The notes below the pieces were generated by a model. The model was not told the DNA's origin and made no database searches. It was given only the letters and a program-made list of their open reading frames with translations. Source: Kiritimatiellia bacterium (GTDB lineage Bacteria > Verrucomicrobiota > Kiritimatiellia > RFP12 > UBA1067). From it: a stretch of DNA of 64,000 bases. This document shows, in pieces, positions 5,932 to 22,615 of the stretch. The stretch spans positions 13,523 to 77,522 of the forward strand of contig JAVEYH010000003.1 in assembly GCA_034003585.1 (NCBI GenBank), written 5' to 3'. A program made the translations under genes and the position numbers. The stretch's first letter is position 1; each line of letters starts with the position of its first letter.

Positions 5932-5990
5932 CATAATGAATTTCTGGGGACAGACCCCAGTTATAATGAATTGCCGGGGACAGACCCCAG
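5932..5990. repeat. two tandem approx. 29-bp direct repeats (ATAATGAATTTCTGGGGACAGACCCCAG / TATAATGAATTGCCGGGGACAGACCCCAG), each containing a palindrome CTGGGG-ACAGA-CCCCAG
   Basis: Read directly in the divergent pilB intergenic region. The repeats lie 26-84 bp upstream of the sigma-54 -24 element. Confidence 0.7.
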
Positions 5991-6015: not shown

Positions 6016-6031
6016 TGGCATCCTTTCTGCT
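6016..6031 (+). promoter_or_regulatory. sigma-54 promoter (TGGCAT-N5-CTGCT) upstream of pilB
   Basis: GG-N10-GC spacing. It has the same CTGCT -12 variant as the pilA and pilM promoters. It lies about 105 nt upstream of the pilB ATG. Confidence 0.55.
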
Positions 6032-6135
6032 AACATTTCAAACAGGAAGAGTTCGTGATTTTCACCCCGACCCGTTCCCCGGAACAGGGGGAAAGGGCAA
6101 TCTGTCCGCAACCTTGCCGAAAAACCTGAAAAACG

Positions 6136-7860
6136 ATGCCGCAACACATCCATTACCCCAGTTTCCAGAGTGCGCTGCTCCGGCGCGGGGTGCTCTCGGA
6201 AGAGCAGCTTCAGAAGGCACTGGAAGAGGCGGGCAAGGTCCCGCTGGAGCGGTTTCTGGTCCAGAACCGGCTGGTTCCGCCGGATGTGTTCGCGCTGACG
6301 GCCGCGGCCTATTTCAACATTTCACCCATCTCCCTGCCGCCCGGGCTGGTGCTGCCGGGTGAGTTGCTCGATTTGGCCTCCCCCCAGCTCTGGGGCAGAC
6401 TGAAAGCCGCGCCGCTGATGCGTCTGGGGAAACGGCTGACCGTGGCGTTCGGCGACCCGTTCGATCTGCTGGCGCAGGAGGAGGTGGCGCGGGTCACGCG
6501 GCTGGAGATCGTTCCGCTCGCGGCGCCGGAAAAAGAGGTGACGGACGCGCTGGGGCGGGTGCAGAGCCAGCGGGACGCGGAGAACCCCGGTTTGGCCATG
6601 GAGAACATCATGAAGGCGCCGGACGCCGACATCGAGTTCTCCAGCGAGCCGCAGAAGCAGGAAGAGAACATCGACAAGACGCTGGAGACCGCGGAGGAGG
6701 CGCCGGTCATCCGCATGGTGAACATGATGCTGGTCGAGGCCCTGCGCATCGGCGCCAGCGACATCCACTTCGAGGCCATGGAAAAGAGTTCCCGCCTGCG
6801 CTACCGGATCGACGGGGCGTTGATCGAACGCCCCAGCCCGCCGAAATCGCTCCACAACGCGATCGTCTCGCGCATCAAGATCATGTCGGATCTCGACATC
6901 GCGGAGCGGCGCAACCCGCAGGACGGCCGGTTCAAGGTCCGGGCGCTCAAGAAAGAGGTCGATATCCGCGTGAGCATCCTGCCCACCATCCACGGCGAAA
7001 AGGTGGTGATGCGCACGCTGGACAAGAGCAACCTCGCTCCCAGCCTGGCGGCGCTCGGCCTGGACGATTTCGCCTTCAAGGCCATGAAATTCGCGATCGA
7101 GCAGCCGCACGGCATCATTCTGGTGACCGGCCCGACCGGATCGGGAAAAACCACGACGCTTTACTCCTGCCTGCAGGATCTGAACCAGCCGGACGTCAAC
7201 ATCATCACGGCCGAAGATCCCGTGGAGTATCAGCTCCCCGGCGTGAACCAGGTCCACGTCAACCAGCAGACCGGCCTGACTTTCGCCTCGGTCCTGCGCT
7301 CCGTGCTGCGGCAGGACCCCGACATCGTGCTCGTCGGCGAGATCCGCGACGGCGAGACCGCGGACATCGCGGTCAAGGCCGCGCTCACGGGCCATCTGGT
7401 GCTGAGCACGCTGCACACCAATGACGCGGCCGGCGTGATCGCCCGCCTGATCGACATGGGGGTCCCCCCTTTCCTGATCTCCTCCTCCCTGATTCTCGCC
7501 CAGGCCCAACGCCTCTACCGCAAACTCTGCCCGCTCTGCAAGAAACCGTGCGAGGTGAACCCGGACGTGCTCGCCGCCAACCGCATCGACCCGGCCTTTT
7601 TCGAGGGCGCGACGCTCTTTGAGCCCAACGGCTGCGCCAAATGCAACGGGATCGGGTACAAAGGCCGGGGCGCCGTGATGGAGGTGCTGTCCGTCACCGA
7701 TCCGATCCGCGCCGCCATCGGCCGCGGCGCGGACTCCGCCTCCCTCCGCGACCTGGCGGTCCAAGAGGGCATGGTCACGCTGAAGGACGCGGGCATGATG
7801 AAAGTCCGCAGCGGCGTCACCTCGCTCCATGCCGCGCTCGAGGTGACCGGCGGAGAATGA
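6136..7860 (+). CDS. pilB: type IV pilus assembly ATPase PilB (GspE family) with T2SSE_N N-terminal domain
   Basis: Walker A GPTGSGKTTT. Tetracysteine motif CPLCKKPC...CAKCNGIGYKGR. N-terminal T2SSE_N domain. pilC is immediately downstream. Confidence 0.9.
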   Translation: MPQHIHYPSFQSALLRRGVLSEEQLQKALEEAGKVPLERFLVQNRLVPPDVFALTAAAYFNISPISLPPGLVLPGELLDLASPQLWGRLKAAPLMRLGKRLTVAFGDPFDLLAQEEVARVTRLEIVPLAAPEKEVTDALGRVQSQRDAENPGLAMENIMKAPDADIEFSSEPQKQEENIDKTLETAEEAPVIRMVNMMLVEALRIGASDIHFEAMEKSSRLRYRIDGALIERPSPPKSLHNAIVSRIKIMSDLDIAERRNPQDGRFKVRALKKEVDIRVSILPTIHGEKVVMRTLDKSNLAPSLAALGLDDFAFKAMKFAIEQPHGIILVTGPTGSGKTTTLYSCLQDLNQPDVNIITAEDPVEYQLPGVNQVHVNQQTGLTFASVLRSVLRQDPDIVLVGEIRDGETADIAVKAALTGHLVLSTLHTNDAAGVIARLIDMGVPPFLISSSLILAQAQRLYRKLCPLCKKPCEVNPDVLAANRIDPAFFEGATLFEPNGCAKCNGIGYKGRGAVMEVLSVTDPIRAAIGRGADSASLRDLAVQEGMVTLKDAGMMKVRSGVTSLHAALEVTGGE

Positions 7861-7880
7861 TCCGGGAAAGGGAAGCGACG

Positions 7881-8975
7881 ATGCCAGAAGTCAAACAGAA
7901 GAGCCGCGAGATCCGGGTGTCGGGTATCGGGCAGATCCGGAAGAAGGAGCTGATCCCCTTCACGCGGCAAACCGCCAGCATGCTGAACGCCGGCATGTCG
8001 GTCCTGGCCGCCATCTCCACTCTGGAGGACCAGTGCTCCCACGCCGGATTCCGCGTGGTGCTGAAAAATCTGCGCGAGAGCATCGAAAGCGGTTCGCCGG
8101 TCTCCGAGGGCCTGCGCCACTTCCCGAAAATTTTCGACGACATGTACGTCAACATGGTCGCCGCGGGCGAGAAGAGCGGACAGTTCGCCCCGGTGCTGAA
8201 ACGGCTGGCCGTGATGCTCGACTCCTCCGCGCGCCTTGTGCGCAAGGTCAAATCGGCCATGACCTATCCCGCCGTGATCATGGGCCTGGCCACCCTGATC
8301 GCGGGCGGGCTCGTGACCTTCGTGGTGCCGGTCTTCGCCGAGATGTTCTCCGGGTTCGGCGCGAAACTGCCCGCCCCCACCCAGTTCCTTGTGAACCTCA
8401 GCGACTTCATCCGGGGCCGTTGGTATGTGCTGCTCGGCGTGACGGCCGTCTCCGTCGTCGGGTTCCGCAAGTGGGTCACCACTCCGCAGGGCCGCTACAC
8501 CTTCGACAAATACATGCTGCGCCTCCCGGTCTTCGGCCTTCTTACCCAAAAAGTCGCCGTGGCGCGCTTCTGCCGGCTGTTCGCGCAGATGCTCACCAGC
8601 GGCGTGCCGATTCTGGACGCCATGCACATCGTCGCCTGTTCGATGGGCAACAAAGTCATCGAAAGCTCGATTCTCTCGGCCCGTTCCGGCATCGAGCAGG
8701 GCAACACCCTCAGCTCTTCGCTGGAGGGGAAACCCAGCCTGCCGCTGCTCATGGTCCGCATGATCGCCGCGGGCGAGAAGAGCGGCCGGATCGACGAGAT
8801 GCTCGAAAGCGTGGCCGACACCTATGATGACGAGGTCGAAACCACTCTCGCCACGCTCACCTCGCTGATGGAGCCGTTCCTCATGGTCTTCCTCGGCGTG
8901 GTCATCGGCGGCATCGCGATCGCCATGTTCCTGCCGATCTTCATGCTCGGGTCGGTGGTCAGCGGCGGCGGATGA
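7881..8975 (+). CDS. pilC: type IV pilus platform protein PilC (GspF family)
   Basis: Two T2SSF-like repeats and three TM segments. The ATG is 21 nt after the pilB stop and is preceded by GGGAAAGGGAAG. Confidence 0.85.
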   Translation: MPEVKQKSREIRVSGIGQIRKKELIPFTRQTASMLNAGMSVLAAISTLEDQCSHAGFRVVLKNLRESIESGSPVSEGLRHFPKIFDDMYVNMVAAGEKSGQFAPVLKRLAVMLDSSARLVRKVKSAMTYPAVIMGLATLIAGGLVTFVVPVFAEMFSGFGAKLPAPTQFLVNLSDFIRGRWYVLLGVTAVSVVGFRKWVTTPQGRYTFDKYMLRLPVFGLLTQKVAVARFCRLFAQMLTSGVPILDAMHIVACSMGNKVIESSILSARSGIEQGNTLSSSLEGKPSLPLLMVRMIAAGEKSGRIDEMLESVADTYDDEVETTLATLTSLMEPFLMVFLGVVIGGIAIAMFLPIFMLGSVVSGGG

Positions 8976-9074
8976 TCCCCGCCCGGATCCCGAAAAACGT
9001 GCCCTTGTGTTCGGTACCCCTTTATCCTATACTGGCTTGACTTTTATCGGGTACCCGAGTGGACATGTTTCAAT

Positions 9075-10454
9075 ATGGCTAAAATCCTGATTGTCGATGA
9101 TGAGGCGCGGATCCTCATGCTGTTGCAGAGCCTGCTGAAGGCCAACGGCTATGAGGCGTCCACGGCCAAGGATGGCCATGAGGCGCTCGCGCTCCTGAAA
9201 AAGGAGGGGTTCGATCTGGTCGTCACCGACCTGCGCATGTCCCCCATGGACGGCATGACGCTCTTCCGTGAGATCAAAACCCTCTTTCCCTCCATGCCGG
9301 TGATCCTGCTGACCGCCTACGCGTCGGTCGAGACCGCGATCGAGGCGATGAAGAGCGGGGCCTTCGATTACCTGACCAAGCCCTTCAAGGTCGACGAGAT
9401 GCTCGCCACCGTGCGCCGGGCCGAAGAGCACGCCAAGACGCACACGGCCGTGGTCTCGACCGACCCCAACGCGCCGCTGCGCTACCAGTTCGAGAACCTG
9501 ATCGCCTCCAACAGCGCCATGGTGCAGGTCTGCGAGATGATCCAGCGCGTCGCGCCCACCGCGGCCACCGTGCTCATCAACGGCGAAAGCGGCACCGGCA
9601 AAGAGGTCATCGCGCGCACCATCCACAACACCAGCCTGCGCAACGACAAGCCCTGGGTCGCCATCAACTGCGCGGCGCTCCCCGAGCCGCTGCTCGAATC
9701 GGAACTCTTCGGGCACGTCAAAGGGGCTTTCACCGGCGCCCATGTCGATAAAGAGGGGCTGTTCGAGACCGCCAGCACCGGCACGCTGTTTTTGGACGAG
9801 ATCTCCTCCCTGCCCCTGGTGCTGCAGGGCAAACTGCTGCGCGTGCTGCAGGAGAAGGAGATCCGCCGCGTGGGCGGAACGAAGAACATCCCGGTCGATG
9901 TGCGGGTGATCGCCGCCAGCAACACCAACCTGGAGCAGATGGTGGTCCAGGGCAATTTCCGGGCCGACCTCTATTACCGTTTCGCGGTCATCACCCTCGA
10001 CATCCCCCCGTTGCGCGAACGGTCCGAGGACATCCTGCCGCTCGCCCGCCACTTTATCCGCATCGAGTCCGCGGGCTCCAAAACGCTGCCCAGCATCTCC
10101 AAAGAGGCCGCCGATCTGCTGCTCGCCTACAAATGGCCGGGCAACGTGCGCGAACTCGAGAATGCCATCAAGCACGCGGTGACCTTCCTGGAGGAGGATG
10201 TCATCACCCCTGAACTCCTGCCCCCGCGCATCGTCAGCCGCGCAACGGAGGCCAAATCCCAGCAGCCCCTCCAACCCGCCCTCGCCGGCAGCAGCACGTC
10301 GCTGAAAGGGTTCCTTAAACTCAAGGAGAAGGAGTATCTCGAACAGATCCTCTCTTCCACCAACGGTGACAAGGAAAAGGCGGCCCAAACCCTTCAGGTG
10401 AGCCTGGCCACGCTCTATCGGAAACTTTCCGATGAAGAGCCCGCTTCGACCTGA
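9075..10454 (+). CDS. pilR: sigma-54-dependent response regulator (receiver + AAA+ sigma-54 activator + HTH), PilR/NtrC-like
   Basis: Receiver domain with DLRM. AAA+ motifs GESGTGKE and ESELFGH, plus GAFTGA. The gene is directly upstream of the sigma-54-promoted pilin gene. Confidence 0.85.
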   Translation: MAKILIVDDEARILMLLQSLLKANGYEASTAKDGHEALALLKKEGFDLVVTDLRMSPMDGMTLFREIKTLFPSMPVILLTAYASVETAIEAMKSGAFDYLTKPFKVDEMLATVRRAEEHAKTHTAVVSTDPNAPLRYQFENLIASNSAMVQVCEMIQRVAPTAATVLINGESGTGKEVIARTIHNTSLRNDKPWVAINCAALPEPLLESELFGHVKGAFTGAHVDKEGLFETASTGTLFLDEISSLPLVLQGKLLRVLQEKEIRRVGGTKNIPVDVRVIAASNTNLEQMVVQGNFRADLYYRFAVITLDIPPLRERSEDILPLARHFIRIESAGSKTLPSISKEAADLLLAYKWPGNVRELENAIKHAVTFLEEDVITPELLPPRIVSRATEAKSQQPLQPALAGSSTSLKGFLKLKEKEYLEQILSSTNGDKEKAAQTLQVSLATLYRKLSDEEPAST

Positions 10455-10557
10455 TGTTGCGGATTTTTTGCAGTTTTGCAAAACGGACCTTTCATTTTTG
10501 AGAAAAACGGACGCTCGGCCGCTCCCGGTTGCGGCCGAACCCTTGCGTGCCACGGCT

Positions 10558-10574
10558 TTGGCACGATGTCTGCT
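10558..10574 (+). promoter_or_regulatory. sigma-54 promoter (TTGGCACG-N4-CTGCT) upstream of pilA
   Basis: Near-consensus -24 GG and -12 GC elements. It overlaps the inverted repeat GTGCCACGGCTTTGGCAC and lies about 75 nt upstream of the pilA ATG. Confidence 0.65.
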
Positions 10575-10647
10575 GAAAACCATCTCGCTACCGACAAGGT
10601 GCCGGTCGCGCAGAAAACGAGTGAGTGAGACAGTTAAGGAATAAACC

Positions 10648-10995
10648 ATGAAACAAAACCGCAAAGGTTTTACGCTTGTTGAAATCATGATCGTGGTCGC
10701 GATCATCGGCATCTTGGCCGCCATCGCCATCCCGAACTTCATCAAGTCCCGCAAAGAGTCGCAGAAGAACGCCTGCATCGCCAACCTCAAGCAGATTGAG
10801 GGCGCGATCGAGCAGGCCCGTCTGGCCGGAATCGCCGCTCCCGCGGCGAGCGATATCTTCGGCACGACCGCCTACATCAAGGTCGCCCCGACCTGCCCGT
10901 ACGGCAAGGCCACCTACGCGATCCCGACCAGCGACACCCGTCCGGTGTGCCCGAACGTGGCGTCCGTCACGGATCACGTGCTGCCCACGACCTGA
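10648..10995 (+). CDS. pilA: type IVa major pilin (prepilin with N-methylation motif)
   Basis: Leader MKQNRKG, then FTLVEIMIVVAIIGILAAIAIPNF with Glu at +5. A C-terminal Cys pair (TCPYG...VCPN) fits a D-region disulfide. Confidence 0.9.
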   Translation: MKQNRKGFTLVEIMIVVAIIGILAAIAIPNFIKSRKESQKNACIANLKQIEGAIEQARLAGIAAPAASDIFGTTAYIKVAPTCPYGKATYAIPTSDTRPVCPNVASVTDHVLPTT

Positions 10996-11040
10996 GTTCT
11001 GTGCGCGCGCGGAACAACCCGCTCGCGATACGAAACAGAA

Positions 11041-11073
11041 AGCAGATTCCCCGACGGGGGGATCTGCTTTTTC
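11041..11073 (+). terminator. rho-independent terminator after pilA
   Basis: Hairpin AGCAGATTCCCCG-ACG-GGGGGATCTGCT followed by TTTTTCG. Confidence 0.7.
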
Positions 11074-11095
11074 GTTATGGAACGTTCCGCCGCGC

Positions 11096-11151
11096 AACCC
11101 GGAACCTGAAACCCGCAACCAGAAACCCGGAACCAGAAACCAGAAACCCGA
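11096..11151. repeat. short imperfect tandem repeat (AACCAGAAACCCGG-like units, 4-5 copies) in the convergent intergenic region
   Basis: The sequence reads AACCCGGAACCTGAAACCCGCAACCAGAAACCCGGAACCAGAAACCAGAAACCCG. Confidence 0.6.
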
Positions 11152-11214
11152 TTCCGGGCGGGGGCACCTGCGCTCCCAGTGCCAAACCGCCCCGCGTTGC
11201 GGGTTGCGGGTGAC

Positions 11215-13263
11215 TCATTCGGGCTGGTAAAACCAATACCCGAAAGCCGCGTGATCCCCGTAAAGGGTGATTTGCGGCCGTTCCTGCCGCACCGCTCCGG
11301 CCGGCAGTTCGAACGACGCCTCGCAGAACATGGGCGCGGAGGCCAGGGGCGCGAGCGGCAGCGCGACCACGCCCGCGTCGGCGCCGTCCACTTTCACGCG
11401 GATCTGCAGCGGGGTGACGAACGAGAACGTCTGCCGTTTGGCGCGCACGCCGATCCGCACCTCGGTTTCCGCGCGTTCGGCGGTCCGCACGATCACGCGC
11501 ACCGGCTTGCCCGGCGTCAGTTGCGGCGTGAACTCCACCCACCCCACCACCACGCGGCCCACATCAAAGAGGGTGTTCGTGCCCATCGCGAAGGGGAGAT
11601 GGGTCACGCCGTGGTAACGGCTCTCCGCCGCAAACGCGCACCGCCTCTCATCCTCGGCATACCCCACATCCAACCGGTCCGCAAGACGCCAGCCCCGGAC
11701 TTCTTTTCCCGCCAGATGCGGCGCGCGCGCGCCGTCGAGAGGGGACCACACGGCCTGCCGCATCTGAATCTCATCCACGCCCAACGCGGCCACCGGACCG
11801 CACAGCACGGCGATGTCGGAACCGCCGAACTCGGTCTGCGCGGAGGGCAGCGCCCAGTAGTCGAACCGGCGCTCGGGATGGTGCTTGAGCCGCTCCAGAT
11901 TCGTCACGATCTCGGGGGTCATCCAATCCGGCGAATAGAGCCCGGAGAGATGAACAAACGTCCGACCCGGCATCCCGTAGGCGAGATTGCAGGCCACCCC
12001 GCCAATCCGCGCCCCCGGCGGCAACCGCGCGTGCGCCTCTTTGGCGAATTCGTAACAGGGCTGGGTGATCAGGCTGGCCGTGTGGTACATGGTGACGAGC
12101 CACGCCGCGTTCAGCGCCTGAAACGCGGCCACAATCAGCAACGGTCCCCAGCGGCAGGCCGCGGTCCGGCCCAATCCCCAGCCGAGCCGCAGGGCGCCCG
12201 CAGCGGTGTACACCAGCCACACCGGCAGCAGCCACGCCAGATACCGGTCCACATTGGTGTTCTGCCAACCGCTCGAAGCGACCACCCCCACGCCGGCCGC
12301 ACAGGCGGCCAACCACCACACCTCTTTCCAGACCCCCCCGCGCCTCCGGGACAAAGTCACCAGCCCCACCCACGCGCAAAGCGCCCCGAGCAGCGGCACA
12401 TAAAAACTCTCGCGCGGCAAGGCGTCGGGCAGACCGAGCAGCAACTCCCGCAGAATCCGCACCGTATCGCCCAGCGTCAGGTGCAGGGCCGAAAGGAAGT
12501 CATACTGCTTGGCATACCCCTTGTGGATCACCGACTGGAACTGGACGTATCCCGTGAGTCCGTAATTGAACACAAAGAGCCCGGCGGAGGAGAGGAGGCC
12601 CGTCAGCCCCGCCACCCCCTCCAACCGCGTCACCCGCTGCCGCATGCCCCACCGCTTGAACGCCAAGGCCGCGGCGAACAGCACCGAGAGGAGCACCCCT
12701 TCCGGACGGCACCACGGCGACAGGCCCAGCAGCACCGCGAAGGCAGCCATCCTCCCGCTCAGCAGGGTGAAGAGCAATCCCGAACTCAGCGCCATGAAGA
12801 GCCCGGCATCCGACTGCGACAGCGCGCTGTAGGCGGCCTGGCCGCTCAGCGCCACCAGCGCGCAGGCCGCGGCCCGGATGCGGGGGGAGCGGAGGAACCG
12901 GCCGATGATCCCGGCCCAGGCCGCGAGAAACAGCAGATAGAAGAGGGCGTTGAGCGCGAACCCCGCGGTCAGCAGGGCGTCGCCCTTTGCCCCGAGTTTG
13001 TAGAGCAGCCCCAACACGAAGGGGTAGAGGTGCGAGGTGCTGCCGGTGGAGGGGCGGTCTCCCGGCGTGTAGACGAAAGGATGGCCCTCCGCCACCCGTT
13101 GCGCGGACTGGCAATAGAGCAGGGTGTCCGGCTGGGGCACCGCCAGATGGACGCCGTCGGTCGCCAGCGAGCCGGCCACATAATAGGCGGCGACCTGCAA
13201 CAGCCCGAACACCACCATCCCCTTGACCAGATTGTTTTTGTGAATCAGGGCTTTGCTATTCAT
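11215..13263 (-). CDS. polytopic membrane protein (about 11-13 TM helices in the N-terminal 400 aa plus an approx. 280-aa C-terminal soluble domain); function unknown, GT-C-like architecture
   Basis: Hydrophobic segments run throughout residues 15-400 and the C-terminal domain is hydrophilic. It is the last gene of the minor-pilin operon. Confidence 0.75.
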   Translation of the reverse strand: MNSKALIHKNNLVKGMVVFGLLQVAAYYVAGSLATDGVHLAVPQPDTLLYCQSAQRVAEGHPFVYTPGDRPSTGSTSHLYPFVLGLLYKLGAKGDALLTAGFALNALFYLLFLAAWAGIIGRFLRSPRIRAAACALVALSGQAAYSALSQSDAGLFMALSSGLLFTLLSGRMAAFAVLLGLSPWCRPEGVLLSVLFAAALAFKRWGMRQRVTRLEGVAGLTGLLSSAGLFVFNYGLTGYVQFQSVIHKGYAKQYDFLSALHLTLGDTVRILRELLLGLPDALPRESFYVPLLGALCAWVGLVTLSRRRGGVWKEVWWLAACAAGVGVVASSGWQNTNVDRYLAWLLPVWLVYTAAGALRLGWGLGRTAACRWGPLLIVAAFQALNAAWLVTMYHTASLITQPCYEFAKEAHARLPPGARIGGVACNLAYGMPGRTFVHLSGLYSPDWMTPEIVTNLERLKHHPERRFDYWALPSAQTEFGGSDIAVLCGPVAALGVDEIQMRQAVWSPLDGARAPHLAGKEVRGWRLADRLDVGYAEDERRCAFAAESRYHGVTHLPFAMGTNTLFDVGRVVVGWVEFTPQLTPGKPVRVIVRTAERAETEVRIGVRAKRQTFSFVTPLQIRVKVDGADAGVVALPLAPLASAPMFCEASFELPAGAVRQERPQITLYGDHAAFGYWFYQPE

Positions 13264-13274
13264 CTGTGGTTCTG

Positions 13275-14417
13275 TCAGCGATACGATTCCGAAATGATTT
13301 GCGAGTCCGGCGTGTAGGATTCCGGGAGACCCGAGATCCGGCTCATGTACGCCACCAGTTGATTGACGCGCCCGACACTCTCTTCCGCCATCTTGAGCAG
13401 ATCGCGCTGCGAAGAGGTCAACACGCCCGCGCGTTCCGATTGGAGCATTCCGATCACACCGGTCGAGACGGTCAGCGGCTGCACGATCTCCTGATTGAGT
13501 TCGGCGTACCGCTCGATCAGTTCGGCGCGGGTGAGCTTCAGGCCGATGCCGCGACGGCGCGCGGCCGATTCGATGCTGGCGATGGTCTGACGGTCGTCAT
13601 CCACCTGATTGGCCAGCGAGGAGATGTGATGTTCCGAATCAACGGTCAGGGTCGAGAGCACGTGGCGGATCCGCTCCAGCGTGTCGATCACCGTCTGATG
13701 CCGCTTTTCGGCGGACGGGCCCTCGTCTTGTTCCAGCAGCGCCGCGGTTTCGCGCAACAGCGAGGCCAAGGAAGCGGACTGCTCTTTGCGTTTCGCCGCG
13801 CGCGTGTCCGGGGCGGTATGCGGCGTTTCCGGCGCATCGTCCATCGCGAGGGCTTCCGACAAGTCCAGCACAGCGACGCCTCCCGCGGCGGGCCGCGGCC
13901 GGTTCGCGGCCGCCTGGGGGTCCGCCGGCACCGGCGCGCCGGACAGGTCACCCGTTTTCTCCTCTTTCTCCCCCGCGACGCGCTGAAACGCGACCGTCAC
14001 CACCTGCACGCTCCGCAGGCCGGCCTTGCGTACCGCGCCCTCAAACCCGTTCTCCGCTGCCAGCGCGGCGGGCGGCGTGCCCAGCAGCGTCACGCAGGTC
14101 AGGAACTCGTCCAGCACCGCAGGGGCCTGAAAAAGCAACCCGCCGATCTTGTGCAGGGTCATGCGCTCCGACAGGTTCTTGCCGGCCGCCTCCGTGATCC
14201 CGTCGGAAGAGCCGTTGACCAGGAGCTGCCGCTCGTTCAGGGCGATTTCGATCACGCCGTAGGCTCTGACCGCCTGCTCCAGTTCGGTGAACACGCTACG
14301 CGCCGCATTCTGGGTCACCTTGTGGGAAGGCCCGTACACGCTGGCCTGACTGATCAGCAACCCCAACGCCCGGATCAGCAGCACCGCATCCTTTTCCGGT
14401 ATTTTCACATACGCCAT
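13275..14417 (-). CDS. hypothetical protein (start chosen at the ATG encoding MAYVKIP, preceded by GGGAGAGGG)
   Basis: Protein-like composition and tight spacing to the flanking genes. No domain was recognised. Confidence 0.6.
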   Translation of the reverse strand: MAYVKIPEKDAVLLIRALGLLISQASVYGPSHKVTQNAARSVFTELEQAVRAYGVIEIALNERQLLVNGSSDGITEAAGKNLSERMTLHKIGGLLFQAPAVLDEFLTCVTLLGTPPAALAAENGFEGAVRKAGLRSVQVVTVAFQRVAGEKEEKTGDLSGAPVPADPQAAANRPRPAAGGVAVLDLSEALAMDDAPETPHTAPDTRAAKRKEQSASLASLLRETAALLEQDEGPSAEKRHQTVIDTLERIRHVLSTLTVDSEHHISSLANQVDDDRQTIASIESAARRRGIGLKLTRAELIERYAELNQEIVQPLTVSTGVIGMLQSERAGVLTSSQRDLLKMAEESVGRVNQLVAYMSRISGLPESYTPDSQIISESYR

Positions 14418-14447
14418 GCCGGTCGCCCTCTCCCGCAATCCGCCGTC

Positions 14448-15551
14448 TTAATGCCAAGCCGTAACCACCACATTGTCCGTCTCCGTCTGCGACGGCGGCA
14501 GGTTGAATCCCTGCCCGTCCCCGGCATACAGATCCGCCGTGCCGTTACCGGTCACCCCCTGACCGACCAGGACGGCCCCGTAGATCACGGCATGGCCGTT
14601 CAGATGGAAGCTCGCGTTCGGCATGATGACCGCGCCGCGGATCACGGCATCGGCGTTGATTTTGACCTCTCCCGTACCCAGCACGATCAGGGCCGGGTAT
14701 CCGTTCTCGGCCGTCAGATCCACCCCGCTTCCCTGCAGCGAGACATCCCCCAAAAAGATGAACGTGCCGGTCCCCTGCTTGCTCCACCCGTCCGCGGATC
14801 CGGTGCAGACCGCCACGCCCCCGGGCGGCGAGGCGGGGATCTGCGACCCGCTCGCGTAAACCGCGCCGTTTTCCTCCGCAACCGCGATGAACGCGTTGAT
14901 CGCCGCATTCAGCGCCGCGCCCAAAATCTCGACCGGCGACTGGTTGGAGAGCATGGTGACCGTGCCGTCCGCTTTCTTCCACTCGACTGTGCCCGCGCTG
15001 GACACCCGCACCGCATCCACGTTCGAACTCCCCGTCAGCGTCACGTTGCCGTTGGCATGGATATCCGTCACGGTGGCCTTGAAATTGCCTTTGAGGTCCA
15101 GGACCCCGCCGACCAGCAGGTCGAAGAGCATGTCGAAATAATCGTCCGCCAACTCGTCCTCCAGCACCTTCGGCACATTCTCCACATCGGCCGAGACGCG
15201 TGCGCGGCCGATGCCGCAGACCCCCTCGGAGACCAGCCGCGCCCGCTCGCGCCCGTCCGCCGAAGCCAGCACCTCGGCCTTGACGGTATAGGTCCCGCCG
15301 CCGAAGGCCAGCGTTTCGGCAAGCCCGTTGACCTGATCGAAGTCCGTTTTCACGGCGTTATAGGCCTTGTTCAGGCCCGACTCCGCGATCAGCCGCGCCT
15401 TGAGCATCTCGCGCGTGATCTGCGTGGCGCGCATCTGCTGCGACGCCGAATAGCCCAGCATGCCCGAGACGATCATGATGATGCTGATGACCCCGAGCAC
15501 GGCCACCACCGCCGAGCCGTTCCGCTGGCCTTGCTGTTGCCCTGTTCTCAT
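14448..15551 (-). CDS. PilX-like type IV pilus minor pilin/assembly protein
   Basis: N-terminus MRTGQQQGQRNGSAVVAVLGVISIIMIVSGMLGYSAS resembles PilX_N-type hydrophobic N-termini. It sits in the operon with prepilin-like genes. Confidence 0.6.
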   Translation of the reverse strand: MRTGQQQGQRNGSAVVAVLGVISIIMIVSGMLGYSASQQMRATQITREMLKARLIAESGLNKAYNAVKTDFDQVNGLAETLAFGGGTYTVKAEVLASADGRERARLVSEGVCGIGRARVSADVENVPKVLEDELADDYFDMLFDLLVGGVLDLKGNFKATVTDIHANGNVTLTGSSNVDAVRVSSAGTVEWKKADGTVTMLSNQSPVEILGAALNAAINAFIAVAEENGAVYASGSQIPASPPGGVAVCTGSADGWSKQGTGTFIFLGDVSLQGSGVDLTAENGYPALIVLGTGEVKINADAVIRGAVIMPNASFHLNGHAVIYGAVLVGQGVTGNGTADLYAGDGQGFNLPPSQTETDNVVVTAWH

Positions 15552-15584
15552 GCCGCACCTCCCCGCGCCGCGCGCGGTCTCCGC

Positions 15585-17780
15585 CTACTTGCCGCTGTTG
15601 CGCGGCTCGACCTCCGCGGTCATCGCGGATTTCAGCCGCTCCTGCTTGGATCCGCTCATGGCCTTGACATCCTTGAAAATCTCGATCTCCATGGTCACGC
15701 CGCGCACCAAAGGCTTGTTGTCGACCTTGACCTCGAAAATGCCGCAATCCGGGCTTTTCAGCAGCTCGGCCGTCACATCCACATATTTCTCCTCGCCGTC
15801 CCAGGTGAACCGGGCCCAACGGATTCTGGGCGTGTCGCTGCGGTAAGGTCCCGCGCTGCCCAGCCCGCCGCCGCCGGGATACTGGCTGGCCGGCTGGGCG
15901 AGAAACGTCGCGCGGAACTGCACATAACGCCCGGTGTTCCCCGAGAACCCGCCGCCGCTGGAGGCCTCCGCCACGTTCTCCCAGGACGGGGCGTCCGCGA
16001 TGACGAACCCGTCGTCGGTCAGGGTGTCGCCCGAGCGCGCGAACATCGCGAGGTCCGCGCCGGCCGGCACGTCCGCCTCCCACGCGAAGGTTTTGGCCGC
16101 GCCGGCCGCGCTCTTCGTGTCGTACGGGTGCGAGACGTACTCCCCGCCGTCCGCATAATTCACTGCCGCGAACTCCAGCGTGGGCACGAAGGGTTTGAGT
16201 TCGAGTCCTGCGATTCCCTGCCAGTTGAACACACCCAGCAGATTCGTCCCGCCCGCGGGAATCACCCAGCAGCCGGGGATGCGCACGCCGGGCTTGTCAT
16301 AGCGCACCACATCGAAGCGCGTGAAGCTGTCATCCGGCGCGGTGACGGTCGTCCGGAACTGCAGCATCAGCGTGCTGCCCATGGGGATCCGAATCAGCTC
16401 CGCCGGCCGCAGTTCCAGAAAGCTCTGTTTGGCGCAAGCGGCCCAATCCGTCTTTTTCGCCCCGTTTTGCCAAAACTCCAGGGAAATCTGCGCCTCCGGG
16501 TCGAGCTTGGGCAGCAGGTTGCTGTTGTAATCGGCGGGCACATCCTGCAGCGCCACCACCGCGAACGAGGGGTCCAGCACCTGCAGTCCGCCGTTGTACA
16601 GCGACTTGTAGAGCCGGAAGACCGGTCCGTAGCCGTCCTTCTTCAGCCCGTAGAGGACCGGCTCGCCCGATGCGGCGCTCCGGTTCGGGTCCGCCATGAC
16701 GGGGATCCGGATCACGCAGTTGGTCAACGGCCTGAAATAATCGTTGCGGTAGTGGCCGGTCTGCTCCGCACAGGTCCAGTTCTTCTCCGTGCCGAACTGG
16801 CCGTCGATGCGGGCCGCATAGGTTCCCTCCGCGAATCCCGAGGGAGGGCTGACGGCATCGAACCGCACCACGGTGTTCGAGAAGGCGACATTCCGGCCCT
16901 CGCCGATGAACTCGTACTCCTCGATGGCGTCGTTGCGCACCTTGACATGAAGCGTGTCGCCGATCCCCGCGGCGGTCGCGGCAAGCCCGTAGGCCGCGCC
17001 GGCCTTGTTCTGTCCCACGTGATAGGGCGCGGCCGCGGCGCCGGAAGTCGTGCGCCACTCGGCCTCCTGCGGCCAGCCGCTCACACTGGCCAGGATCCGG
17101 TCGAGGCGCAGGGCCCGGGAGGTCGCGGCGTTGTTCTTGCCCTTGACGGTAAAGCTCACCGTGTGCTCACCGGGGCCGAGCGGGAGGCTGCCGAAGGTGA
17201 CGCGCTCGCGCGTGTTTGCGGCCGGCGCATAGCCGTCGAACTGCGCCGACGCGTGCCAGAGCTTGCCGGTGAAGAGGTTCTCGAACATCACGATGGTCGA
17301 GGCGTTCTCGCCCGCGAGGCAGGCGGACGCGCCGTTGCCCGCGGCCACCACCGCGGCGATCTGGCCGTAGCGGTCCGCATACAGCGCATTCGGGTTGCGG
17401 TTGGCGAAGACCGTGCGCCGCATCTGATGGGGCGAGTGGTTCCAGACGTGGTAGACCACGCTTTCGCGCCAGAGGATGTTGGTGCCGCCCTCGCTCATCT
17501 CCACCGGTCCGTTGGTGCCGGAGCCGGCCAGGGCGAACCCCACCGCCTGATAGGGCTCCTGGTTCTCCGGGTAGAAGATCACCGTCTCGCGGGCGGTGTT
17601 GCGCAACTCATGGCGGAACCGTTCGATCACCTTGCGCGCGTCCATGTCCAGCGACGCCTGGGTGCTGACCCGGTTGGACTTGTACATGAACAGCAGCCAG
17701 GACGACAGGGTCATGCCCATGACCAGGCTGAACACCGCGACCGCGAAGATCGTCTCCAGTAATGTGAATCCTTTGCGCAT
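15585..17780 (-). CDS. large (731 aa) prepilin-like protein, a PilW/PilY1-like giant minor pilin
   Basis: The start was chosen at the internal ATG, giving MRKG|FTLLETIFAVAVFSLVMGM, a class III signal with Glu at +5, followed by a long extracellular domain. Confidence 0.75.
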   Translation of the reverse strand: MRKGFTLLETIFAVAVFSLVMGMTLSSWLLFMYKSNRVSTQASLDMDARKVIERFRHELRNTARETVIFYPENQEPYQAVGFALAGSGTNGPVEMSEGGTNILWRESVVYHVWNHSPHQMRRTVFANRNPNALYADRYGQIAAVVAAGNGASACLAGENASTIVMFENLFTGKLWHASAQFDGYAPAANTRERVTFGSLPLGPGEHTVSFTVKGKNNAATSRALRLDRILASVSGWPQEAEWRTTSGAAAAPYHVGQNKAGAAYGLAATAAGIGDTLHVKVRNDAIEEYEFIGEGRNVAFSNTVVRFDAVSPPSGFAEGTYAARIDGQFGTEKNWTCAEQTGHYRNDYFRPLTNCVIRIPVMADPNRSAASGEPVLYGLKKDGYGPVFRLYKSLYNGGLQVLDPSFAVVALQDVPADYNSNLLPKLDPEAQISLEFWQNGAKKTDWAACAKQSFLELRPAELIRIPMGSTLMLQFRTTVTAPDDSFTRFDVVRYDKPGVRIPGCWVIPAGGTNLLGVFNWQGIAGLELKPFVPTLEFAAVNYADGGEYVSHPYDTKSAAGAAKTFAWEADVPAGADLAMFARSGDTLTDDGFVIADAPSWENVAEASSGGGFSGNTGRYVQFRATFLAQPASQYPGGGGLGSAGPYRSDTPRIRWARFTWDGEEKYVDVTAELLKSPDCGIFEVKVDNKPLVRGVTMEIEIFKDVKAMSGSKQERLKSAMTAEVEPRNSGK

Positions 17781-17794
17781 CGCGCACCTCGCAT

Positions 17795-18271
17795 CTAAGG
17801 CGTCCGTTTCAGCTCCTCGGTGAACAGGTAGTCCATCCGCTCGCAATCCCGGTCATCGAACCGGCAGATGAACTTCCCGGTTTTGATCGGATGGAACACT
17901 TTGCGCCAACCCCAGCGGGAGCAGGTGCAGATATGGGTTGTGACCGTCATATGCGTCAGGTTGGTGGTCGGTGAATTCACGGTCACCTCTGTCTTCCGGA
18001 GGAAACGGCCGGCGGGATCCGCCGCGTTGCCGAAATCATCCACCCGCGTGCCGAGCTCGCGGTACAGGTGCAGATCCGCGTACGGCACCCCGCGCGCCCG
18101 TTCGATCCGGCCTTGGGAGAGCGATGCGGCCACATAATGGTCCCGCGCCATCTGGAAACGCGAGATCATCTGGTCGACCAAAGGGAACGCCGCCGTCAGG
18201 ATGATGACCAGCAGACCCATCGCCACCATCAGTTCGACCACCGTCATGCCGCGCTGCCCTGTTCTGCTCAT
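17795..18271 (-). CDS. PilV/FimU-like minor pilin
   Basis: MSRTGQRG|MTVVELMVAMGLLVIILTAAFP is a prepilin-type N-terminus with Glu at +5. The start was chosen at the internal ATG. Confidence 0.7.
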   Translation of the reverse strand: MSRTGQRGMTVVELMVAMGLLVIILTAAFPLVDQMISRFQMARDHYVAASLSQGRIERARGVPYADLHLYRELGTRVDDFGNAADPAGRFLRKTEVTVNSPTTNLTHMTVTTHICTCSRWGWRKVFHPIKTGKFICRFDDRDCERMDYLFTEELKRTP

Positions 18272-18281
18272 AACACCCCCG

Positions 18282-19427
18282 TCAGACCCGCCGCGACGGC
18301 ATCCGCTCCTCTTCGATCCGGAGCATGCCTTTCGTATCCCCCTGCCCGGGCAGATACGGTTCCGCCGCGTACAGCCGTTTGGCATTCATCTTCTGCAACA
18401 GGTCCCGCAACTGGATCACGGCGTCATAGCACAGGTTGATCATGTCCTGCCGCGACTTCTCGTCTTTGACGCCGCCCATCTTGAGAATTTCGATGCTGGT
18501 CAGCAGCACCGTGGCGGGCTGGCCCAGCGAATGGCACACTCCGGCCAGACTCTCCATCATCACGCGGTTGCGCTCCACCTGACTCTCGGCGATCTCGGCG
18601 CGCCGGCGCTCCGCCGTGTCGCGCAGCGAGATCACCATGCCGCGCAGCTCATCGTCGTCGTTGATATCCGGCACCGCCGCGATCTGAAGCCAGCGCGCCT
18701 GCTCGTTGACCAGCAGCCGCTGTTCGCCGATCCAGCTCTTGCGCTGCCGGACGTTGGCGAGCATCGGCACAATCACGGCCTTGTGGTCGAACCAGGCCGA
18801 CAAATGGCCGCCGAACACCTCGGTCTCCTCCCCGCCCGCCAGCAGATGCACCATCATGCGGTTGGCGTAAACGACCTTGCCCTCCATGTCCGCGATGCCG
18901 ATGCCCGAGTCGGTGTTGTCCATCGCGTGGTAGACCGAGAGCAGCCGCTGCTCGGCCTGCCACCGCGACTGGATGTCGCGGATGAGATAACAGACCGGTT
19001 CGGGAACGCGCAACCCGTTGCCCATGGCCACGATCTCCACGGCGGAGAGGCTGCCGTCCCTGCGCACCGCGAACGCCTGAATGCGCATGTACCGGCTTTC
19101 CGAGATCACCGCCAGGATCTCCTCCAGCAGCGAAGAGGTCACACCGGCCACCAGCGTGCCCAGCGGCACGCCGGACAGGCCCCGCTCCCGTTCGCCGTAC
19201 TGGAAGAACGAGGTCGCGCGGGCGTTCGCCTCCAAAACGATCCCGTGCCGGTCAGCCAGCAGGATCGCATCGTACGCGCTCTCGAACAGAAACCGGTAAT
19301 CCAACTTGCCGAAATAATCCGCCTGGACCTCTACCCCGGAACGGTCGGCCACGGTGGAACGCCCGTAACCCAATGAGCGGATATCGATTTTGATGGTCTG
19401 TGATTTGTCGTTCGTACTCATCGTCAT
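18282..19427 (-). CDS. PAS-domain protein with C-terminal DHp (HisKA)-like helix but no ATPase domain
   Basis: Two PAS-like segments, then ...MESLAGVCHSLGQPATVLLTSIEIL. No HATPase_c follows. Start at MTMSTNDK, preceded by AGGGGCGCC. This is the first gene of the minor-pilin operon. Confidence 0.6.
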   Translation of the reverse strand: MTMSTNDKSQTIKIDIRSLGYGRSTVADRSGVEVQADYFGKLDYRFLFESAYDAILLADRHGIVLEANARATSFFQYGERERGLSGVPLGTLVAGVTSSLLEEILAVISESRYMRIQAFAVRRDGSLSAVEIVAMGNGLRVPEPVCYLIRDIQSRWQAEQRLLSVYHAMDNTDSGIGIADMEGKVVYANRMMVHLLAGGEETEVFGGHLSAWFDHKAVIVPMLANVRQRKSWIGEQRLLVNEQARWLQIAAVPDINDDDELRGMVISLRDTAERRRAEIAESQVERNRVMMESLAGVCHSLGQPATVLLTSIEILKMGGVKDEKSRQDMINLCYDAVIQLRDLLQKMNAKRLYAAEPYLPGQGDTKGMLRIEEERMPSRRV

Positions 19428-19500
19428 TGGCGCCCCTGCGTTACAATCCGTCGTAAACCGCATGTGAGAATCCCGATGCGATCTCAAGCCATGTAGTATT

Positions 19501-19517
19501 AGCAAAAATCATGCCGG
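19501..19517 (-). promoter_or_regulatory. weak sigma-54-like element on the minus strand (CCGGCATGATTTTTGCT) upstream of the PAS/minor-pilin operon
   Basis: GG-N10-GC spacing with TTTGCT at -12 and a degenerate -24. Confidence 0.3.
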
Positions 19518-19566
19518 AACCATTGCCCCCCTTCTGGCACGCGGCAACCGCCTTTTTTCTCCCTTC

Positions 19567-19583
19567 TGCAAAGCCGCTTTGCA
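19567..19583. promoter_or_regulatory. perfect 8-1-8 palindrome TGCAAAGC-C-GCTTTGCA in the divergent PAS-operon/pilM intergenic region
   Basis: Read directly. Candidate regulator binding site. Confidence 0.4.
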
Positions 19584-19706
19584 AAAACGAGAATCCGGGG
19601 CGGAGCCGCGACCGGGCCCGCGCCTGACGCCGAACCCTCCGGAAGGCCGCGCGCGAACATGCCGCTTCCGTCCGGGAGCGGCGACCCGCGCTTTTTATCG
19701 TGAAAC

Positions 19707-19722
19707 TGGCACTGTTTCTGCT
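19707..19722 (+). promoter_or_regulatory. sigma-54 promoter (TGGCAC-N5-CTGCT) immediately upstream of pilM
   Basis: Same motif as the pilA and pilB promoters. The -12 GC is only about 15 nt before the pilM ATG, implying a leaderless or very short leader mRNA. Confidence 0.5.
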
Positions 19723-19734: not shown

Positions 19735-20751
19735 ATGACCAAGGGGTTACCCATATCCGCGCTTGCGCGGCAATCCAAGCCGCTCACCGACATTGTGGGG
19801 ATCGAGGTGGGTTCCGGTAATCAGGACGGCGTTCCCGCGGTGCGCCTGCGCAAGCGTAACAACCGGTTCGAGCTGCTGGCCGCCGGGTTCCTGCCCTTGC
19901 CGGGAACCCTGCCCCTGGATCAGGATGCCGCGCAGAAGTCCGCGCCGGTCTGGCTGTTGCCGCGGCCGTTTCAGGCCCCGCACGCCGCGCTGGCCATCTC
20001 CTCCCCGCTCGGATTCCTGCGGCATGCCGCGGGAGCGGGGGAGGAGACGCCGGACAAGCAGGCGGTCCCTTTCCGGACCGCCTCCCGCGCCTCAGCTCCG
20101 GAATCCCCGGCGCTGCTGACCGGCCTGCCCGAGTTTCAGGCCGCCTGGGCCGCCCGGCTCCTGCCCGAAGGCCGCCGCCCCACCGCCCGCTCGATCCAGT
20201 TCTCCCCGGCCGCCGCCCTCAACGCGCTGACCGCCTCACCGGGTTTCAGCGCGGTCTCCGGCACGGCCACCGCGCTCTTTGTCTTCGCCGAATTCACCTC
20301 CATCGCCGCCTTCCAGGAGGGGCATCTGATGCTGTACCGCGAACACGCCGCGGGCTATCTGCACCTCCGCAAGGTTGTCAGCCAGCAGATGGGCATTGAT
20401 ATGGCCCTGGCGGACTCCCTGCTTGACGACACGCTGGTCGACCCCACGCCGATCATCGAGCCGGTGCTCCGTCCGCTGTTCAGGCAGGTCGAGATCTCCT
20501 CGGACTTCCTGCTCCGCAGGCGAAACTGCAAGGCGGACCACTTTTTCCTGTGCGGCGTGCCTGCCGGGAACCGTTACTGGTCTTCGGTGTTCGCGCAGAT
20601 GATGAGCCATACGCTCACGCCGCTGCCGCCGTTGGACGGTGCCGAACCCCCGCCCCCGGGCCACTCTGGCGCGGACCCCCTCACGCCGGCCCAGAAACAG
20701 TTGCTGATGACCGCGTATGGCGCGGCGCGCGCCGCTTTGGAGGACGCATGA
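19735..20751 (+). CDS. pilM: type IV pilus assembly protein PilM (actin-like)
   Basis: N-terminus ...IVGIEVGSG. Size and position (first gene of the pilMNOPQ set) fit PilM. Confidence 0.7.
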   Translation: MTKGLPISALARQSKPLTDIVGIEVGSGNQDGVPAVRLRKRNNRFELLAAGFLPLPGTLPLDQDAAQKSAPVWLLPRPFQAPHAALAISSPLGFLRHAAGAGEETPDKQAVPFRTASRASAPESPALLTGLPEFQAAWAARLLPEGRRPTARSIQFSPAAALNALTASPGFSAVSGTATALFVFAEFTSIAAFQEGHLMLYREHAAGYLHLRKVVSQQMGIDMALADSLLDDTLVDPTPIIEPVLRPLFRQVEISSDFLLRRRNCKADHFFLCGVPAGNRYWSSVFAQMMSHTLTPLPPLDGAEPPPPGHSGADPLTPAQKQLLMTAYGAARAALEDA

Positions 20752-22554: not shown

Positions 22555-22615
22555 CACGCTTTTCCCCGCGTCTTCCCTCCCCATCGATTTTCAACCCAAA
22601 CCCAGGAGTATTCAC

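Follow-up and report, generated by a model that had tools for sequence, protein, structure and literature searches.

The window analysed here is a stretch of 64,000 nucleotides (nt) from a Kiritimatiellia bacterium (assembly GCA_034003585.1, contig JAVEYH010000003.1), in which two type IV pilus gene clusters are found. Kiritimatiellia belong to the Planctomycetes-Verrucomicrobia-Chlamydiae (PVC) group; they abound in guts, sediments and bioreactors, most of them have never been cultured, and to our knowledge nothing is known of their transcriptional control. We are interested in a short DNA element, TGGCAY-N5-CTGCT (TGGCAYNNNNNCTGCT), which a preliminary description of this stretch had noticed in front of pilB, pilA and pilM and had read as the −24/−12 promoter element of sigma-54. 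We find eight elements of this type in the window, and we are confident that genuine sigma-54 −24/−12 promoters stand before almost every unit of the two pilus clusters.

Genes and promoter-like sites of the window

The GC content of the window is 63–70%, which gives rise to long shadow open reading frames (ORFs); the coding strand was therefore chosen according to the GC content of third codon positions (GC3). Genes were annotated with Pfam and NCBIfam. The features of the pilus region are the following.

1945–4659, plus strand: hybrid sensor histidine kinase (CHASE4-like/HAMP/PAS/HisKA/HATPase/REC; Pfam)
4727–5608, minus strand: protein with TPR and MshEN domains (Pfam)
6136–7860, plus strand: pilB (T2SSE and MshEN; Pfam, NCBIfam)
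about 7881–8975, plus strand: pilC (T2SSF; Pfam, NCBIfam)
9075–10454, plus strand: enhancer-binding protein (EBP) with REC, AAA+ (Sigma54_activat) and HTH_8 (Fis-type helix-turn-helix) domains (Pfam)
10648–10995, plus strand: pilA, a 115-residue type IV pilin with an N-terminal methylation motif (Pfam, NCBIfam)
11047–11061: terminator-like hairpin after pilA (terminator scan)
11215–13263, 13275–14438 and 14448–15551, minus strand: three further genes of the minus-strand operon (GC3)
15585–17846 and 17795–18385, minus strand: pilin-like genes of the minus-strand operon (GC3, Pfam)
18282 to about 19427, minus strand: PAS protein 1 (PAS1), first gene of the minus-strand operon (GC3, Pfam)
19735–20751, plus strand: pilM-like gene
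20717–21358 and 21392–22003, plus strand: pilN/O-like genes
22616–24484, plus strand: secretin gene (Pfam, NCBIfam)
24549–31223, plus strand: gene for a 2224-residue Flg_new_2/DUF1565 repeat protein (Pfam, NCBIfam)
31078–32718, plus strand: PilT-family ATPase gene (TIGR01420 at 458 bits, cut-off 319)
32778–34019, minus strand: PAS protein 2 (PAS2)
34144–35112, plus strand: HU-like and zinc-ribbon protein
35242–38073, plus strand: pseudopilin genes behind the HU-like gene

This map departs from the preliminary description at two places. The long plus-strand ORFs annotated there at 11–18 kb (11179–17762; 712 and 1498 residues) are shadows: according to GC3 and Pfam, the real genes here are six in number and run on the minus strand, and the order of these minus-strand genes (11215–19427) is kept in relatives. 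Likewise, what had been called a ‘giant pilT’ consists of two genes, one encoding the repeat protein and the other a separate PilT-family ATPase. The repeat protein looks secreted, and contains eight Flg_new_2/InlB B-repeat stretches in addition to DUF1565; its gene is located between those of the secretin and the PilT-family ATPase. The genes from the pilM-like gene to the PilT-family ATPase gene (19735–32718) form a probable single transcription unit.

The sites listed next were located with a weight matrix of 26 nt, built from 83 distinct orthologue sites in related genomes, none of which comes from the window. An exact match is a match to TGGCAY-N5-CTGCT, and starts of transcription and 5' untranslated regions (UTRs) are predictions.

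1765–1780, plus strand: TGGCCCGATTTATGCT, candidate sigma-54 site 164 nt 5' of the hybrid kinase gene; 23.0 bits
5802–5817, minus strand: CGGCACGTTTTTTGCT, putative sigma-54 site before the TPR and MshEN gene, divergent from pilB; 23.8 bits
6016–6031, plus strand: TGGCATCCTTTCTGCT, putative sigma-54 site before pilB-pilC; exact match, 26.1 bits, predicted start near 6042
10559–10574, plus strand: TGGCACGATGTCTGCT, putative sigma-54 site before pilA; exact match, 27.0 bits, predicted start near 10585
19501–19516, minus strand: CGGCATGATTTTTGCT, putative sigma-54 site before the PAS1/minor-pilin operon; 21.3 bits
19707–19722, plus strand: TGGCACTGTTTCTGCT, putative sigma-54 site before the pilM-like gene; exact match, 25.9 bits, predicted start near 19733
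34044–34059, minus strand: TGGCATCGATCCTGCT, putative sigma-54 site before PAS2; exact match, 25.7 bits, predicted 5' UTR of about 14 nt
34087–34102, plus strand: TGGCACAACTTCTGCT, putative sigma-54 site before the HU-like/zinc-ribbon and pseudopilin genes; exact match, 24.3 bits

The three elements quoted in the preliminary description, before pilB, pilA and pilM, are all present; the pilA site begins at 10559, the position given earlier (10558) taking in one extra T. Two further sites that had been offered as weaker candidates, those of the kinase and of the PAS1 operon, are also among the hits, but the total is eight, as the sites at 5802–5817, 34044–34059 and 34087–34102 had been missed.

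Enrichment and conservation of the sites

The sigma-54 consensus has been given as mrNrYTGGCACG-N4-TTGCWNNw, with GG at −24 and GC at −12 (PMC2725144). The motif of the window fits this consensus (YTGGCACG-N4-TTGCW) in the Y-relaxed form TGGCAY-N5-YTGCW: five of the eight sites agree with it at all 11 specified positions, with GG and GC exactly 10 nt apart, and the remaining three depart from it at one position, two of them with C in place of T at position 1 and the third with C in place of A at position 5.

If such matches were merely a matter of chance in GC-rich DNA, then they should occur as often as expected from composition. For the bare core GG-N10-GC this is indeed the case (1487 occurrences in the window against 1469 expected), so that the core is uninformative as a search pattern and the signal must reside in the extended motif. 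The extended motif TGGCAY-N5-CTGCT, by comparison, has five exact matches in the 64-kb window against 0.05 expected, and none of 100 dinucleotide shuffles reached five. The weight matrix gives exactly eight hits in the window, with scores of 21.3–27.0 bits, and the ninth best scores 9.8 bits; that is, a gap of 11 bits separates the eighth hit from the ninth. In 50 Markov shuffles the maximum score averaged 12 bits, and its absolute maximum was 17 bits. All eight hits are intergenic, each of them faces a downstream gene, and all lie in the pilus region (1–35 kb). Given these counts, together with the conservation of the sites at orthologous positions described below, we regard the chance explanation as refuted for all practical purposes.

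The matrix scan found no sigma-54-type site in the window between 35 and 64 kb and no internal hit within the unit that runs from the pilM-like gene to pilT, and the motif is absent upstream of pilC and of the EBP gene in the window. The genes in the other 26 kb of the window have functions unrelated to pili; among their products are an RND efflux pump, oxidoreductases, a TetR regulator and a lipid A acyltransferase.

We assessed conservation in loci gathered by scanning species-representative genomes with the EBP, which yielded 80 loci. Those numbered L002–L068 come from metagenome-assembled genomes of Kiritimatiellia (some of them labelled Lentisphaerae or Verrucomicrobia) with EBP identities of 54–94%, and those from L069 onward are outgroup paralogues; the proteins of the window were placed on the loci by tblastn. 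For each orthologue we took the best match to TGGCAY-N5-YTGCW at most 300 nt upstream, and the motif was counted as kept when at least 10 of the 11 positions agreed. By this definition, the motif is kept upstream of pilA in 39 of 42 orthologues (mostly 58–81 nt before the ATG), upstream of pilB in 23 of 28 Kiritimatiellia orthologues, and upstream of the pilM-like gene in 22 of 25. In the controls, it is found upstream of 1 of 66 EBP genes and 1 of 35 pilC genes, with scores that average 8.0–8.1; random 303-nt windows contain it in 4.5% of cases. Across the orthologue sites the contact positions are invariant and the N5 spacer and flanks vary freely, as a functional footprint should.

The matrix was also applied to 910 kb of sequence from relatives, where it finds 133 hits of at least 16 bits. 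All but two of the hits (131) fall outside the coding sequence that was mapped, and for 115 the gene that follows within 400 nt is orthologous to a pil-cluster gene of the window. The site is directional, always pointing toward a start codon 10–180 nt off, and it travels with pilB, pilA and pilM through three gene orders, given here with arrowheads for the direction of genes, HK for the hybrid kinase, and sigma-54 sites in brackets with their strand.

Gene order 1: HK> TPR< (site −) (site +) pilB> pilC> EBP> (site +) pilA> ... PAS1< (site −) (site +) pilM>
Gene order 2: pilQ< pilO< pilM< (site −) EBP> (site +) pilA> (site +) pilB> pilC>
Gene order 3: pilC< pilB< (site −) EBP>

The pilB site also precedes the rearranged pilB of L016, L020, L029, L034, L041, L044 and L052. 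Upstream of the TPR-MshEN orthologue, a variant of the form CGGCAY-N5-YTGCT is found at a distance of 23–56 nt in seven relatives, and equivalents of the PAS1 site are found in L002, L005, L007, L008, L015, L031 and L067. Thus the orthologue counts, the matrix and the gene orders all agree with the original suggestion of sigma-54 elements before pilB, pilA and pilM.

An independent test of conservation is offered by the divergent pair of sites between PAS2 and the HU-like gene, since neither was used in building the matrix. A metagenome scan with the HU-like protein gave 28 loci (L082–L109), 20 of which include the upstream region; both sites are present in 19 of these 20, and the HU-side site in all 20. 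The two sites stand back to back (34044–34102), and the gap between their TGGCA boxes is 27 nt in 9 of 21 cases and 25–31 nt in 18 of 21. With a gap of 27 nt, the distance between the two GG dinucleotides is about 31 bp, equivalent to three turns of the helix; the sequence of the spacer is unconserved. We found no enhancer-like element within 400 nt on either side of the pair.

The HU-like protein, which is encoded in all 28 of these metagenome loci, has 322 residues, with an HU/IHF-type DNA-binding domain at its N-terminus and a zinc-ribbon-like region at its C-terminus. An HU/IHF-like protein that would itself be under sigma-54 control, and whose gene lies amid putative sigma-54 promoters, may well have an architectural part in DNA looping.

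Activator, enhancer candidates and leaders

As the preliminary description had stated, the window contains a single EBP gene and it adjoins pilA; Pfam confirms the assignment. The translation contains the Walker A sequence GESGTGKE and an intact GAFTGA loop, and Sigma54_activat matches it with 238 bits. Among the Kiritimatiellia orthologues, the loop reads GAFTGA in 47 and GSFTGA in 20, which accounts for all 67. The best NCBIfam matches of the EBP are AtoC, NtrC and ZraR, all below their cut-offs; no equivalog cut-off is reached, and the PilR equivalog is absent among the 25 best of the 121 matching families. More than 40 relatives share with the window the arrangement of an EBP gene followed by pilA.

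We searched for the sigma factor itself by tblastn, using the E. coli RpoN sequence, and obtained full-length matches in L034 and L036. The rpoN genes of L034 (3881–5260; Sigma54_AID, CBD and DBD according to Pfam) and of L036 (3769–5175) are both complete; each adjoins the pilQ-pilM operon, and the EBP gene is some 5 kb away. In this gut/rumen clade of Kiritimatiellia, therefore, the sigma factor, the activator and the pilus targets (pilA, pilB and pilQ-pilM) share one cluster.

An activator of this class would be expected to bind upstream of the promoters that it serves. Two regions of the window contain candidates for such an upstream activating sequence (UAS).

10467–10504, plus strand: candidate UAS for pilA, TTTGC-N5-TGCAA, N8, TTTCA-N5-GAGAA, 55–92 nt upstream of the −24 box
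19557–19593: candidate composite 37-bp palindromic UAS, TTCTC-N5-TGCAA, N7, TTGCA-N5-GAGAA, between the divergent PAS1 and pilM promoters

The second of these comprises two exact TTGCA-N5-GAGAA half elements in inverted orientation. In the near clade, the window included, at least one half element is present in 10 of 12 pilM regions and both halves in 8, at a variable distance of 67–200 nt from the promoter. The pilA-type composite recurs upstream of pilA in several relatives, including members of the distant gut clade (L041, L044). When at most one mismatch is allowed, TTGCA-N5-GAGAA is found in the window in the two UAS regions and in only two unrelated places, the background rate of the element being 0.076 per kb. 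Conversely, it is absent upstream of pilB (0 of 23) and of the TPR-MshEN gene (0 of 7), and from the surroundings of the PAS2/HU pair (0 of 19, searched to 400 nt on each side).

From its adjacency to pilA and from the conservation of the palindrome, we infer that pilA and pilM are the targets of the EBP, with PAS1 as a possible third. The pilB/TPR-MshEN and PAS2/HU pairs presumably depend on another EBP or on activation that is free of enhancers. The proposal that the whole machine belongs to one sigma-54 regulon is thus supported, but one activator shared by all is not: the palindrome is missing at five sites, among them that of pilB.

Other candidates for enhancers were set aside. When the regions before pilA were searched for motifs by expectation maximization, the search settled on the end of the EBP coding sequence, which is itself conserved, and gave no enhancer. 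Palindromes of the form CTGGGG-N5-CCCCAG had been considered as a second enhancer, for pilB, and are absent from 81 related loci, including the 95%-identical L002. In the window these palindromes belong to two tandem 28-nt copies (ATAATGAATTnCnGGGGACAGACCCCAG) at 5933–5990, each containing CTGGGG-ACAGA-CCCCAG and together placed 26–83 nt upstream of the pilB −24 box, within an unusually long intergenic region of 527 bp that is rich in CGAT-type repeats. Because they are absent from all 81 related loci, the tandem copies look like a lineage-specific insertion. A similar CTGGGGtgtCCCCAG is present upstream of pilB in L027. Between the pilA UAS candidate and the −24 box, at 10513–10540, there is also a GC-rich inverted repeat with a 10-bp stem (GCTCGGCCGC...GCGGCCGAAC), which might be a terminator of the EBP gene or a structural element.

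The ATG of the pilM-like gene (19735) follows the motif by 12 nt, and with GC at −13/−12 the predicted +1 falls near 19733, which corresponds to a leader of 2 nt. Of 23 relatives, 21 have an in-frame pilM start at a distance of 12–18 nt from the motif. Conservation of the N-terminal peptide begins with Met1; it reads MKS...KP.TDVVGLE in the near clade and MEIQLTKTKTI in the distant clade. Similar distances are found elsewhere: the start codon follows the motif by 10–19 nt in the PAS1 orthologues of six relatives, and by 13–17 nt in several pilB orthologues. The comparison therefore backs the earlier remark that the pilM element abuts the ATG, and the predicted start site implies a pilM messenger that would be leaderless or nearly so. 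In pilA, the predicted 5' UTR of about 63 nt contains an AAGGA Shine-Dalgarno sequence, which is kept before pilA in relatives, and several pilB orthologues have a GGAGA Shine-Dalgarno sequence directly after the predicted +1, a placement that is coherent with the predicted starts. Since a Shine-Dalgarno sequence is present wherever the leader is longer, we conclude that this lineage uses such sequences where there is room for them. A literature search on leaderless sigma-54 transcripts returned nothing directly relevant.

About 20 nt into the predicted pilA leader, at 10596–10614 in the window, lies an imperfect inverted repeat, ACCGRCA-N3-6-TGYCGGT, which is shared by 27 orthologues. In the alignment 84.6% of cells are paired; the covariation does not reach significance, and no structure is predicted by RNAalifold, so that we rejected an RNA structure as a finding for this leader. 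The repeat itself could be either an RNA hairpin or a DNA operator. An Rfam scan of the window gave no matches.

Mechanism, alternatives and known systems

The eight sites are very probably working sigma-54 promoters. According to the mechanism that we propose, sigma-54 RNA polymerase would bind the TGGCAY-N5-YTGCT elements as a closed complex, the opening of which would need an AAA+ activator. The response-regulator EBP encoded next to pilA would most likely bind (TTCTC-N5-TGCAA)-N7/8-(TTGCA-N5-GAGAA), 55–150 bp upstream of pilA and pilM; at pilM, the bound palindrome would stand between the divergent pilM and PAS1 promoters. Once phosphorylated, the EBP would activate by DNA looping, and the phosphate may come from the hybrid kinase, which is the best candidate for the sensor of this system on grounds of synteny, as it adjoins the TPR-MshEN/pilB genes in two different gene orders. 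The pilB/TPR-MshEN and PAS2/HU pairs would be served by another EBP or would be activated without a conserved enhancer. The pilM transcript would start 2 nt before its ATG, and would hence be leaderless or nearly leaderless.

Several points weigh against this account. The whole of it is drawn from sequence. At five of the eight sites no enhancer can be recognised, the palindrome being confined to pilA, pilM and PAS1 (the latter two sharing one region), and the putative link between enhancer and EBP is drawn from adjacency and conservation. We did not see rpoN in the window or in the near-clade loci (about 20 kb each), but only in the two gut/rumen relatives. The first base of the motif is C instead of T in two to three of the eight sites. 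The site of the hybrid kinase is the least certain of the eight: it has the non-consensus C at position 5, and it is kept only in the closest relative (L002, as an identical copy), with weak 17-bit matches in L005 and L010. The assignment of the gene at 19735 as pilM is weak and comes mainly from gene position. The encoded protein is highly divergent; alone, it has no match in Pfam or NCBIfam, 2 of 15 orthologues match PF11104, and a profile of the 15 reaches PilM of M. xanthus (3jc8) at E = 0.031. Finally, the weight matrix involves some circularity, having been trained on orthologue sites that were picked by consensus. This circularity is offset by the exact search, which makes no use of the matrix, and by the classes of sites that were absent from the training set.

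It is important, therefore, to consider what else could produce the same pattern. The EBP next to pilA might activate all eight promoters. It is encoded by the sole EBP gene of the window, and bacterial enhancers can work at a distance; moreover, transcription from the site at 6016–6031 probably reads on from pilB-pilC into the EBP gene, which has no motif of its own, and this would amount to positive feedback. As described above, however, the composite palindrome is found at pilA and pilM and is missing upstream of pilB, the TPR-MshEN gene and the PAS2/HU pair in every locus that was searched, and the rest of the genome may encode other EBPs. We consider control of all eight by this EBP unlikely. 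In a different vein, the motifs could be conserved but unused relics, with transcription proceeding from unrecognised housekeeping promoters. The sigma-54-type promoter of pilE in Neisseria gonorrhoeae is reportedly such a relic, and the failure to observe rpoN in the window or in the near-clade loci would agree with this idea. A scan of the relevant intergenic regions with the sigma-70 consensus had zero hits, which is a weak negative because the housekeeping promoter of Kiritimatiellia is uncharacterised. A relic would hardly be expected, on the other hand, to be kept at eight sites across genera as the spacers diverge, nor to be accompanied by a loop that is intact in 67 of 67 EBP orthologues, by a co-conserved enhancer candidate, and by an intact rpoN beside the cluster in L034 and L036. 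We regard this possibility as very improbable.

The element could also be the site of some other factor, such as an ECF-type (extracytoplasmic function) sigma factor, or an operator for a pilus-specific repressor or activator. The connection to sigma-54 is, after all, drawn from sequence, and the tight restriction of the sites to pilus operons is just what a dedicated transcription factor would also produce. But the positions of TGGCAY-N5-YTGCW and the exact 10-nt spacing of GG and GC fit the sigma-54 consensus (PMC2725144), the site is directional with a start codon always 10–180 nt away, and the EBP gene, joined in relatives by rpoN, resides in the same cluster. An unrelated factor of this kind is very improbable indeed. 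We thus retain the reading of the eight sites as sigma-54 promoters. A more far-reaching version of it, in which the sigma-54 of Kiritimatiellia is dedicated to the type IV pilus and serves its whole apparatus, with promoters fused to start codons and divergent pairs that lack enhancers, is one that we put forward tentatively and consider doubtful. If it were true, starts located 10–18 nt after the −12 box (in the pilM-like gene, PAS1 and some pilB genes) would yield leaderless or near-leaderless messengers that depend on an activator, and the PAS2/HU pair would imply a free or shared EBP ring that acts on two opposed holoenzymes.

Control of pilA by sigma-54 and PilR is classical in Pseudomonas aeruginosa, Geobacter sulfurreducens and Myxococcus xanthus. 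Similar to the PilS/PilR systems, the locus described here has the gene of an NtrC-class response-regulator EBP immediately upstream of pilA, and pilA itself has a predicted −24/−12 promoter and an upstream enhancer candidate; this candidate appears to differ from the PilR sites of Pseudomonas. Unlike in those systems, the upstream neighbour of the EBP gene is pilC rather than a PilS-type kinase, and the nearest kinase is the hybrid kinase 4.4 kb away, which is syntenic but not adjacent. In Pseudomonas, furthermore, pilA was the only known direct target, whereas here pilB, the pilM-Q-T and minor-pilin operons and the accessory genes each have a putative sigma-54 promoter of their own, so that control would span the pilus machine. 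The locus resembles the PilR system in its working, but the EBP is not assigned as PilR.

Activators of sigma-54 that are independent of enhancers or lack a DNA-binding domain are also known, for example CtcC of Chlamydia and FlgR of Helicobacter, and Chlamydiae are PVC bacteria as well. Activators of the CtcC/FlgR type would account for the enhancer-free pilB/TPR-MshEN and PAS2/HU pairs, which we note as a lead. In contrast to that type, the sole EBP of the window has the HTH_8 DNA-binding domain, and we saw no domain-less activator there.

In Geobacter, pilR lies directly upstream of the RpoN-dependent pilA (PMC2725144). For Geobacter sulfurreducens, a computational screen (summarised in PMC6058289) predicted that several genes of the type IV pilus and of flagella are preceded by PilR sites together with sigma-54 promoters, and the predicted PilR/RpoN regulon of Geobacter thus sets a precedent for an extension past pilA. 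The Geobacter regulon is broad, taking in flagella, cell envelope and metabolism, whereas the motif described here is almost confined to pilus-cluster genes (in the 64 kb of the window and about 1 Mb of relatives' loci). Geobacter, moreover, belongs to the Desulfobacterota, and the present bacterium to the PVC group. Sigma-54 has been tied to the synthesis of pili and flagella across many bacteria (PMC3162934); the text of that survey contains no mention of Verrucomicrobia, Planctomycetes or Lentisphaerae. In the literature that was searched, we found no paper that combines Kiritimatiellia with sigma-54.

The regulation described here appears to be of a familiar type that reaches further than is common, in a phylum that has received little study. 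It amounts to a regulatory map of the Kiritimatiellia type IV pilus, made up of eight putative promoters, an enhancer candidate and the EBP that probably acts on it, a hybrid kinase as candidate sensor, and a set of accessory genes (those of the two PAS proteins, the TPR-MshEN protein and the HU-like protein) that would be co-regulated. Beyond the pilin alone, sigma-54 control would cover the assembly ATPase and the operon for alignment, secretin and retraction. The features that set the locus apart are the near-completeness of the sites over the pilus operons, their deep conservation, and the tight back-to-back promoter pair; the predicted, conserved near-leaderless sigma-54 transcripts represent a combination that is seldom documented. 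For the annotation of genomes, the weight matrix, in which more than 10 bits lie between sites and background, may serve to delimit the sigma-54 regulon throughout the class.

Three observations on individual proteins remain to be mentioned. PilB has an N-terminal MshEN domain, a domain type that binds cyclic di-GMP (c-di-GMP). An MshEN domain is also present in its divergent neighbour, the TPR-MshEN protein, which has its own conserved, putative sigma-54 promoter of the CGGCAY variant. The TPR-MshEN protein may bind c-di-GMP, and the two MshEN domains together hint at a c-di-GMP input to the pilus system. In the part of the window with unrelated functions, the 1518-residue ORF at 45124–49680 on the minus strand combines a full AcrB-type RND transporter (ACR_tran, residues 2–1023) with a C-terminal OEP/TolC-like domain (residues 1321–1480), a fusion that would be unusual unless it is an artefact of assembly or a frameshift. 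Lastly, the 389-residue protein encoded at 61169–62338 has a nucleoside-diphosphate-kinase domain in its C-terminal part only (the best Pfam stretch covers residues 312–371), and is far longer than a typical nucleoside-diphosphate kinase.

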